A stretch of 63,892 nucleotides of DNA, counting the filler, from Candidatus Woesearchaeota archaeon (lineage in GTDB: Archaea; Nanobdellota; Nanobdellia; Woesearchaeales; CG1-02-33-12): assembly GCA_018399355.1 (NCBI GenBank). It is 5 parts of 5 records of this genome, joined end to end, with 100 filler letters (N's around TTAATTAATTAA, not from the genome) between each part and the next. Parts side by side here need not be neighbours in the genome. Positions count along the whole stretch, not along the records: positions 56,253 to 63,892 come from JAGYOA010000043.1; 4 more parts are not named here. One strand, given 5' to 3'. Positions within the stretch are counted from its first letter, which is position 1, and every line of letters starts with the position of its first letter. Positions 57,001 to 60,000 of this stretch are shown here, piece by piece. Position numbers: made by a program.

Positions 57001-60000
57001 AAGGAGAAAGGGCATTTTTACTTGGAGAATTGGGAATTGGAACAAACCCGAAAGCAAAAATCACAGGAATTATCTTAGAGGATGAGAAAGCCATTGGAAC
57101 AGTTCATTTTGCATTCGGAAATGACTTAAGCTACAATGGAAAAAATGATGTTCCATTGCACTTAGACGGGCTAATAAGAAACCCAACAATCAAAGTTGAT
57201 GAAAAAACAATAATGAAAGACGGAAAATTTTTGATTTAAAAATGAACAAGATAAAATGTTTTTATGAAAAACTTCTTGAAAAATATGGCCTGCAGGGATG
57301 GTGGCCTTTGCTCGATTGCAAAGGATGTAATCCAACAAAGACAGGCTCTATCCAGGGTTATCATCCAGGAGATTATTCTTATCCAAAAAATGAAAACCAA
57401 AGGTTTGAAATCTGCATAGGAGCAATATTGACTCAAAACACAAGCTGGCCCCAGGTAGAAAAAGCATTAATCAATCTAAAAAAAATAAATGCAATAAATC
57501 CTGAGAAAATTAAAAATATGGAAATTAGTGAATTATGCCATGCAATAAAGCCGGCTGGCTATTTCAACCAGAAGGCCAAAAAACTAAAAATATTCTCAGA
57601 ATTTTACATTAACCTAAAAGGAAAAAAACCAACAAGAGATGAACTGCTTGCTCTTTGGGGGATAGGTCCGGAAACAGCAGACTCAATTTTGCTTTACGCT
57701 TACAAACTACCTAGCTTTGTCGCGGATGCATACACCAGAAGGATTTTCTCATCCATGGGCTTAATCAAAAAATATGAAACATATGACAACATAAAAAAGC
57801 TTTTTGAAGATAACCTTGAAAAAGACTTTAAATTATATCAGGAATACCATGCTTTGATAGTTGAGCATGCAAAAAACAATAAAAATAAAAAGCTTTAAAT
57901 AAAGACGTTGTTTAAAAAACAAAAAAGAGGGATAAAATGGAAATATGGGGTTTAGTTGCAATAATTCTTGCAATAATAATTATACTTGCAATATTGAAGT
58001 TTGTTTTTAAGATGGTAAAACTGGTATTCTGGATAGCTGTTATCTTGTTTATAATAACGAGTGTGATGGGAATATTCACATACAGGGATGCGCTTGATAT
58101 TAAGGAAAACCTTGAAACCCAGCCCAAAATTTTTCTGTTAAAGGAAAATGAGAATATTATCACAGGATTTTCTCTTGAAAGTTTTGATGAAGTCTCTGAA
58201 TATTTTGACTCCACTAAAATATCTGCATACCAAAAAGATTTCAAAGACAAAAACTATAAAGAGATGCTTGGCGAGAACTACAAAATGTTTATATTTGACA
58301 AAGATGCTTTTGACTTAAGTGAAAAGCAAATTGACTTCATAGGCGGAAAAGTATCAAAGCAGGAACTCTATTCTGTGCTTAAATCAAATAAACCTATTGA
58401 AGCTTATAGCTCTGTTGCAGGAACAGACCCGAGAGTTTATGGCATAGAAAACCCTGCTGAGTTTAAAGGAAATATATTTGCTTTGCTTTTCAACGAAGAG
58501 TTTAAGTCAAAAGGCCAGCTGTTTATTTTAATGGAGTACAAGAAAAACAATGTTATTGTTTATCCTGAAACAGCAAGTTTCAAACTAATAAAACTAGTGC
58601 CAACATCATTTATCAAAAATATTTTTGAAAAAGCAAAAGAAAAGGCAGTTGAAAAAATAAATGGCACTATAAGAGGTGATTAATATCGGCATTTTCAACA
58701 ATCTTGAATTCTGGAAAAAGTATTCAGGAGAAAAGGACAATACAGGCGTTGATAATGACCTTGGATTAAGACAGCAGGATCAGGAATTTGATAATTCTGG
58801 CCTTCCAAAGAGAAGCCCTTACCAGCAACACAATAAAATGCCTGAAATGCAGGAAATGCAGCCAGCCGGATTCGGAGAAAGCTCTGGATTTGAGGGCTCT
58901 TCATTTGATCCAAACAGCTTAATGGACGATCAATCTTTTTCTGAAAAAAATCAATTCCAGAAAAACACCAATCCTGAATTTGATAACTTTCAAAACAGAC
59001 AGCAGTCATCAATGCAAAAAGACCTTGAGATAATATCAACAAAGATTGATTCCATAAAGCTTATTCTTGAGGATATGGACAGAAGGATAAGCGAGATAGA
59101 GAAGATTGCAAAACAATGAAAAAAGCAAAACAAGGCATTTTATTTCTTATAATATCAATAGCTGTTGTTGTTTTTGATTATGCTGTAAAATTTATAGTTA
59201 GGAAAAGCATAAGCCCGGGACAATCAATTATTTTATTAAAAAATGTTCTTCATATAACTTATGTCAAAAATTTCGGGGCCGGCTTTGGGATATTTCAGGG
59301 CAAAACCAATATCTTGATATGGTTTTCAGTTATTGCAATAGGCATAATTCTTTTTTATTATGACAAAATAATTGAAAAAAAATCATTGCAGGTTGCATCA
59401 GCATTAATACTAGGGGGAACTGTCTCAAATTTAATAGACAGAATATTTCTTGGTTTTGTTGTTGATTATATTGACTTCAGGATTTGGCCTGTCTTTAATA
59501 TAGGAGACTCATGTATAACCATCGGCGCCTTAATTCTTATTATTTATTTGATTAAACAAGAAAAATAGTTTATTTAACGCAGTCACAGGGCTTAAAACCT
59601 TCCTCTTCAGCCTGTTTTTTGCTTTGAAAGTTTATCTTTCTTTTAGGAAGGATTTTCTCTGCCCATCTGCAGCTTGACACGTGGTATTTTTTGCCTTTTC
59701 TGCTTGCAACAAATTGTTGGGTTTTTTTCTTTTCAGTTTTATCAGAGCTGCTTTTAATGATTATCTCTTTTATTTTTCTTTCAGCTTTTTTAATCTCGTC
59801 TGCCTCTCTAAGTATCTCTTTTTTGTATTCCTGTATTCTTTCCTGAGAGGTTTTTTCAATTGCTTGTTCAGCTTTGTTAATCTGTTCTGCTTCGTGTATA
59901 ATCTCTGTTTCATAAGGCTTAATTTTTCGTCCCTGTAGGTTGTCTATTGAAAGCAAAAATCCTATTACAGATGCAAATATCAAAAATACAAATAAAATCT

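Follow-up and report, generated by a model that had tools for sequence, protein, structure and literature searches.

The lspA locus

How an archaeon comes to encode a lipoprotein signal peptidase of bacterial type, and which lipid would hold the proteins matured by it, is the question raised by a locus of Candidatus Woesearchaeota archaeon GCA_018399355.1 (designated G000; 918 kb, 85 contigs, 97.5% complete). The window, i.e. the whole stretch of 63,892 nucleotides that was analysed, consists of five contigs of this genome joined by N's; positions 56253-63892 correspond to contig C38 (JAGYOA010000043.1). The gene lspA is located on the plus strand at 59116..59568 (C38:2864-3316) and encodes a lipoprotein signal peptidase II of 150 aa with Asp117 and Asp131 as catalytic residues. 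Profile searches gave 117.7 bits against PF01252 (cut-off 25) and 111.6 against the TIGR00077 equivalog (cut-off 73.95). The protein could be aligned with S. aureus LspA (6RYO) with an E-value of 5.5e-21, both Asp motifs being matched. When it was compared with the conserved set of Olatunji 2020, 13 of 14 residues were found to be kept, including both catalytic Asp, the sole departure being Ala135 to Gly. Family score and catalytic residues confirm that positions 59116-59568 encode what is, by its sequence, an intact LspA of bacterial type, as an earlier note on this DNA had proposed. The enzyme resembles bacterial LspA (Peptidase_A8; S. aureus 6RYO, P. aeruginosa 5DIR) in equivalog score, Asp dyad and the 13 residues, whereas it differs at position 135, in its archaeal genome and in the Woesearchaeota-specific gene beside it.

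This neighbour (58676..59119, plus strand), whose stop overlaps the start of lspA, encodes a protein of 147 aa with a coiled-coil-like C-terminal end. No match was found in Pfam or NCBIfam, and the closest Atlas clusters are all archaeal, consisting of Woesearchaeota hypotheticals. In 19 of 31 other lspA loci, some inside Woesearchaeales and some beyond, lspA has a homologue of this gene as its neighbour (phmmer E<0.01), which indicates that the locus is old and inherited, and not a contaminant. The 147-aa gene is in turn overlapped by that of a 248-aa protein with an N-terminal hydrophobic segment (57937..58683, plus strand), which belongs to the same conserved block and has a homologue in 6 of the 31 loci. 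On the other side, a 227-aa membrane protein is encoded convergently with lspA (59570..60253, minus strand) and is loosely conserved (7/31 loci). Neither of these two proteins had a match in the Pfam search.

As all the genomes are metagenome-assembled, bacterial contamination or mis-binning of contigs was considered. It is refuted by shared archaeal contigs and by closed genomes, and its probability is negligible. The contig of lspA also carries aIF-1A (60306-60698, minus strand; Pfam eIF-1a), proteasome beta (61190-61927, plus strand; Pfam Proteasome) and FttA/aCPSF1 (61949-63847, plus strand; Pfam KH_TffA/Beta-Casp), so it is archaeal. The gene lit, described below, lies directly 3' of the archaeal S19e, L31e and Cbf5 genes, and pathway genes are present in the single-contig genomes G052, G088, G163 and G146. 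Among the best 120 LspA homologues, all nine entries with an organism name are Woesearchaeota, Nanoarchaeota or Nanoarchaeia. The Atlas clusters closest to LspA are bacterial LspA, which is uninformative on transfer.

Lit and the lipobox proteins

The gene lit is found outside the window, at C36:427-1002 on the minus strand. Its product scored 65.9 bits against PF07314 (cut-off 24), and in the alignment with B. cereus Lit (7B0O) the equivalents of His85, Asp88, Val89, Phe149, His153, Phe157 and Trp162 were present. His85, His153 and Phe157, which are reported as required in the B. cereus enzyme, correspond to His72, His137 and Phe141. A Foldseek search with the AlphaFold model (pLDDT 91.8) returned Lit structures as the top six matches (TM 0.70-0.79), and beyond Lit structures nothing was found below an E-value of 4. 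The identity to B. cereus Lit is about 22%. Scores of 43.5 against TIGR01906 (cut-off 74.8) and 28 against NF051877 (cut-off 400) do not reach the NCBI equivalog cut-offs, and the protein was therefore filed as a member of the Lit family and not as a proven Lit equivalog. With this restriction, the assignment of Lit to C36:427-1002 made in the earlier note is sustained by the Pfam score, the His motifs and the fold.

Signal peptides ending in a lipobox were detected in 13 of the 1146 gene-like ORFs of G000 by a rule of our own, which reproduced independently the number given before. Cys was clearly enriched over the controls: it gave 10.3 hits per % of proteome, whereas the 11 other residues substituted for it gave 0-3.9. 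One of the 13 predicted substrates, a protein of 243 aa with lipobox Cys26, is encoded in the window (15981..16712, plus strand) and the other 12 lie outside it.

Absence of AliA and probable position of lgt

In archaea, the thioether lipidation of the lipobox Cys is the role of AliA/AliB (arCOG02177/02178, DUF63), which act on the same lipobox substrates and are required for archaeol attachment in Haloferax (Hong 2025, PMC12462473). The search for DUF63 (PF01889) gave no match in the 97.5% complete G000 and control matches in three euryarchaeotes, which bears out the claim that AliA is missing from this genome.

No match to Lgt was found in the 85 contigs of the assembly. The enzyme is present in 11 of 12 family relatives, and in a genome of the same genus (G211) the gene order is sepF-lgt-tpi, with lgt overlapping the start of tpi. 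Contig C3 of G000 ends at residue 28 of tpi (88.8% identity to G211), which leaves about 80 bases to the expected lgt, and sepF, which lies on the far side of lgt in G211, had no match in G000. When public contigs were examined as extensions of C3, the best one reached 69 bases past its end, before the expected lgt. Because C3 breaks inside tpi and the lgt-adjacent sepF is also missing, we infer that the lgt of G000 sits in an assembly gap beyond the end of C3. This fits what had been suggested earlier from the relatives.

The missing gene could otherwise mean that the pathway is decaying in the genus, with lgt lost or impaired, LspA and Lit left as orphans, and lipobox proteins whose signal peptides stay on and hold them. 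In favour of this, the assembly is 97.5% complete and yet has no lgt, and Gln replaces His103 in the Lgt of the same-genus genome. However, the contig stops just before the expected gene and sepF is lost with it, 13 lipoboxes are retained, and the same-genus Lgt scored 157.8 against TIGR00544 (cut-off 118.9; 227.9 for the other of the two relatives tested). Such a decay is thus very improbable.

It is instead probable that LspA acts second in a bacterial pathway (Lgt-LspA-Lit) that replaces AliA in the order and anchors surface proteins via an ester lipid scavenged from bacteria. Lipobox proteins would be exported with their signal peptide uncleaved. Lgt, seen in the relatives and placed in the gap in G000, would then take a diacylglyceryl group from a lipid of phosphatidylglycerol type and attach it to the Cys of the lipobox. 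LspA would cleave just before the lipidated Cys, after which Lit would shift the acyl chain at sn-2 onto the amino group set free, yielding a lyso-form lipoprotein. That the enzymes have these activities is, judging from sequence, very likely.

Distribution in the order and in the class

The order was sampled with 251 genomes that were at least 90% complete. Lgt was detected in 237 of them, and DUF63, the family of AliA, in none (0/251). Seven of the 237 are flagged as unpublished; without them the counts are 230/244 for Lgt and 0/244 for AliA. The table counts of the earlier note (Lsp in 688/822 and Lit in 612/822 Woesearchaeales; 947/956 archaeal Lsp genomes and 772/793 archaeal Lit genomes from Nanobdellota) point the same way as the samples used here. 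The observation is therefore confirmed as real and order-wide.

For the class, 201 genomes at least 85% complete were cross-tabulated using matches over cut-off; an Lgt match of 17.7 bits in the AliA genome G092 and an Lsp match of 19.2 bits in G176, both under the cut-off, had been dropped. The combination Lgt+Lsp+Lit was found in 51 genomes, Lgt+Lsp in 17, Lgt only in two, Lgt+Lit in one, Lsp+Lit in one (G000), Lsp only in one, AliA only in 69, AliA+Lit in two and none of them in 57. The 34 order members in this sample comprised 34 with Lgt, 32 with Lsp, 29 with Lit and none with AliA. As 37 Lgt genomes fall outside Woesearchaeales, the Lgt pathway is present in a second group of the class too. 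The earlier proposal that Woesearchaeales use Lgt-Lsp-Lit instead of AliA thus stands for Lgt and AliA, whereas Lit is not universal and the pathway extends to a group outside the order. Similarly, the mutual exclusion of Lgt and AliA stated for the class is correct in that none of the 201 genomes has both over cut-off, but 57 have neither and, kin not being independent, the exclusion amounts to a few lineage-level events.

Lit is not tied to Lgt. It is missing from 19 of the 71 Lgt genomes, and two AliA genomes (G004 and G023) carry it without Lgt or Lsp; in Aenigmarchaeota it is listed for 19% of genomes, against 0% for Lsp (PMC8204110). When the Lit of an AliA genome was used as query, only itself and one relative were returned. 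Lnt was searched as an alternative to Lit in five genomes and no match was obtained.

The residues were compared in the best-scoring loci only, by which conservation is biased upward. The Asp dyad of Lsp was kept in 32/32 loci, and His85, His153 and Phe157 of Lit in 24/24 archaeal copies. For Lgt, Arg143, Gly154 and Arg239 were kept in 44/44, His103 in 37/44, Tyr26 in 35/44 and Glu151 in 31/44. The genes are close together in some genomes: lsp, lit and lgt lie inside 2.8 kb beside a lipobox cupredoxin in G195, lsp-lit are adjacent in G161, and lit-lgt in G186, G192 and G131. They are mostly scattered otherwise.

Relation to published work

According to Hong 2025 (PMC12462473), no archaeal Lgt or Lsp had been identified, and lipoprotein-rich genomes without AliA/B need a further, undiscovered pathway. 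Its supplementary tables give 12-60 predicted lipoproteins for Woesearchaeota (6 of 7 rows) with AliA at 0 in 7/7 rows. A 2026 preprint following that work does not mention Woesearchaeota or DPANN in its accessible part. The genes themselves had been listed: module 15 of Supplementary Table 3 in Castelle 2021 (PMC8204110), covering 196 Woesearchaeota, reports LGT in 83%, Peptidase_A8 in 83%, DUF1461 (= Lit) in 71% and DUF63 in 0%. In the main text, "lipoprotein" and "signal peptidase" do not occur, and no pathway, replacement of AliA or lipid is inferred. The further papers cited are PMC8275575, PMC4728403, PMC6952399 and PMC12352652, together with PMC8421398, PMC9723730, PMC11035636 and PMC7414124; in the text available for the last four, "lipoprotein" has no occurrence.

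The earlier note had stated that databases name these proteins and that no report exists. NCBI protein names do label the enzymes, and a literature search, with subscription journals outside its reach, found no published account of the pathway in these archaea; the statement has to be amended for the genes that stand without comment in the supplement of PMC8204110. The enzymes belong to known bacterial families or are closely related to them. They stand out by being used in place of AliA in an order of archaea, by cells apparently without phospholipid synthesis of their own. For this order, which is among the largest of DPANN, the pathway would supply the missing lipidation route called for in PMC12462473.

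As a side observation, the 57 of 201 class genomes without Lgt and AliA stand beside predicted lipoproteins in Pacearchaeota, for which the tables of Hong 2025 (PMC12462473) give 1-11.

Two subtypes of Lgt and their origin

The tpi-linked Lgt of the family of G000 belongs to a Cys-rich subtype with the signature GCFxxGCCYG, which is common in bacteria and has no Tyr26, Asn146 or Glu151. Most archaeal copies have the canonical signature. Published mutants of E. coli Lgt at Y26 and E151 are inactive, and His103 changed to Gln fails to complement; apart from the Gln in the same-genus protein, His is kept at this position in 8 of 9 family copies.

A first tree of 50 archaeal and 74 bacterial sequences, the latter all of the canonical subtype, placed the archaea on one side (SH-aLRT 94). 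With bacteria of the second subtype included, the Lgt of the family grouped with Omnitrophota, Nitrospirota, Clostridia and other bacteria, and a single archaeal clade was rejected by the AU test (p 0.004, LG+G4) on 20 versus 20 sequences picked after the earlier trees had been seen. One origin of archaeal Lgt is thus rejected, and lgt was apparently acquired from bacteria at least twice. The trees are of Lgt alone, with Bacillota, Chloroflexota and most Patescibacteria barely sampled, and they point to no particular donor. The archaeal Lgts are long diverged from the sampled bacterial ones.

Nature and source of the anchoring lipid

It had been proposed that Lgt and Lit together imply ester-linked diacylglycerol. 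This holds for Lit, which reportedly attacks the carbonyl of the sn-2 acyl chain in order to move that chain; an ether lipid has no such carbonyl, and on chemical grounds the published mechanism strictly needs an ester. It does not hold for Lgt: in the published mechanism the bond cut is C3-O, and the ester oxygens are contacts only. Lgt alone is therefore no proof of an ester lipid, and the argument is weaker than the earlier note implied.

Lipid genes were compared in a hand-picked panel of 80 of the 143 genomes available (44 with Lgt/Lsp and 36 with AliA). The GGGP synthase family was found in 0/44 Lgt/Lsp genomes versus 7/36 AliA genomes, 29 of the latter being without it. PlsC-family acyltransferases were present in 13/44 (G000 included) versus 2/36, PlsY in 1/44 versus 4/36 and CDP-alcohol transferases in 18/44 versus 16/36. 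Since PlsY is commoner with AliA and CDP-alcohol transferases fail to tell the two groups apart, an equation of AliA with ether and of Lgt with ester lipids is not clean. No match to PlsY (PF02660), CdsA (PF01148) or CDP-alcohol transferase (PF01066) was obtained in G000, nor to CarS or to FabH-type, G1P-dehydrogenase-type or DXR proteins. Its sole UbiA protein is closest to decaprenyl-phosphate phosphoribosyltransferase and not to DGGGP synthase; the search for GpsA gave only weak, uninformative Rossmann-fold matches. With the tested synthesis genes missing, G000 seems to lack the means of making phospholipid of either kind, which would then need to be imported, as has been demonstrated for other DPANN symbionts that take up host lipids. 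The three enzymes are those of the lyso-form pathway of low-GC Gram-positive bacteria (lgt of G000 from its inferred position), the Lit fold and the three residues required in B. cereus being kept. Those bacteria, in contrast, own PlsY, CdsA and PgsA, so the archaeal cell, with no PlsY/CdsA/PgsA-type match, would use a variant dependent on outside lipid.

Given the need of Lit for an sn-2 ester and the missing synthesis genes, a scavenged ester lipid would be the likeliest anchor. An ester-linked substrate of these enzymes is accordingly favoured with some confidence, and a living bacterial host or prey as its source is proposed more tentatively.

An unlikely alternative is that Lgt and LspA work on an archaeal ether lipid (archaetidylglycerol) from archaeal hosts, the Lit-like protein doing another job such as N-acylation from another donor. 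Cleavage of the C3-O bond involves no ester, the lipid uptake so far demonstrated for DPANN is all from archaeal hosts, and the archaeal Lgts have diverged far from their bacterial counterparts. Lit also occurs alongside AliA in G004 and G023, and the Aenigmarchaeota with 19% Lit and 0% Lsp have DUF63 in 89% (PMC8204110 table). On the other hand, the entire active site and fold of Lit are retained, and the family of G000 acquired a second bacterial subtype of Lgt, in keeping with a substrate accepted by bacterial enzymes without adaptation. The hosts of N. equitans, Nanobsidianus and the nanohaloarchaea are archaea. These symbionts have kept AliA, which handles archaeol (PMC12462473), so its replacement would be hard to explain if the lipid had remained unchanged.

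A scavenged ester anchor might also be made or remodelled by the cell's own acyltransferase, from lysolipids and fatty acids of dead biomass and with no specific bacterial host. The PlsC family in 13 of the 44 genomes, G000 among them, would suit this, as would a fusion of AMP-binding, ACP and acyltransferase domains found with AcpS 2.5 kb from lgt in G029. Some bacterial lipid genes are reported in Woesearchaeota (Castelle 2021, PMC8204110), and host independence has been proposed for some members. However, PlsC is lacking in 31/44 genomes and PlsY in 43/44, and without CdsA or CDP-alcohol transferase G000 would obtain no phosphatidylglycerol by the known route. This explanation is considered quite improbable.

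If the reading of a bacterial ester lipid is true, the surface proteins of these archaea are anchored by fatty-acid lipids of bacterial style, which the cells could not make themselves and would need to obtain from bacteria. As the known chemistry of Lit needs an ester, this leads to a testable prediction on the membrane make-up of Woesearchaeales and on whether these archaea have bacterial hosts; no culture of the organism is required for assays of the enzymes. Going further, and speculatively, membranes as well as lipoprotein anchors of Woesearchaeales and the second group of the class may consist largely of bacterial ester lipids from bacterial hosts. Replacement of AliA by Lgt-LspA-Lit might then record a change of host long ago, from archaea to bacteria, and with it a crossing of the lipid divide that occurred in nature. 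Which of Lgt and AliA a genome carries might tell, across DPANN, to which domain the host belongs.

Contact with bacterial walls is pointed to by proteins with a predicted lytic-transglycosylase domain, since murein transglycosylases have earlier been taken to indicate that hosts or prey of Woesearchaeota are bacteria. G000 encodes three such proteins, and in G163 lit is located directly upstream of a gene with this domain.

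The start of lspA is overlapped by an unannotated gene for a Woesearchaeota-specific protein of 147 aa (window 58676-59119). A homologue of this protein adjoins lspA in 19 of the 31 other lspA loci, and the protein is a possible partner of LspA. The lgt found in the family of the source genome (L099:435-1283 and loci L092-L100) is of a second bacterial subtype, which apparently took the place of the canonical lgt in this family; several of its genomes harbor 2-3 Lgt paralogues each. One Lgt in a record titled Methanosarcinales (L152:1201-2025) clusters with Woesearchaeales copies and adjoins a gene that, judged by eye, is aIF-5A-like. 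A wrong record title, a mis-binned contig or a further transfer could each account for it. In genome G029, 2.5 kb separate lgt from an 809-aa AMP-binding/ACP/acyltransferase fusion and AcpS (L124:6827-9588), and this interval encodes lipobox cupredoxins.

Neither Lgt nor AliA was detected in 57 of the 201 genomes of the class sample. Taken together with the 1-11 lipoproteins predicted for Pacearchaeota in PMC12462473, this suggests either that lipidation can follow a third route or that false positives are involved. Two AliA genomes without Lgt and LspA carry a Lit-family gene with the His pair intact (G004, L115:2792-3460; G023, L116:2824-3516). PlsY genes were present in the AliA-bearing genomes G002, G019, G036 and G078, as tandem pairs in the first two; G036 combines the GGGP synthase, PlsY and PlsC families.

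In the source genome, a UbiA-family protein (C26:7347-8006, L217) was closest to decaprenyl-phosphate phosphoribosyltransferase, and its gene adjoins a PAP2-type phosphatase-like gene. Lytic-transglycosylase domains were located at three sites. At C56:18792-23802, a 699-aa protein with this domain is followed by three lipobox-type proteins of similar size, two of which satisfy our signal-peptide and lipobox criterion while the third just fails; this cluster is possibly an attachment or wall-degrading module. The second and third domains are at C2:13064-14179 and C23:33391-35094.
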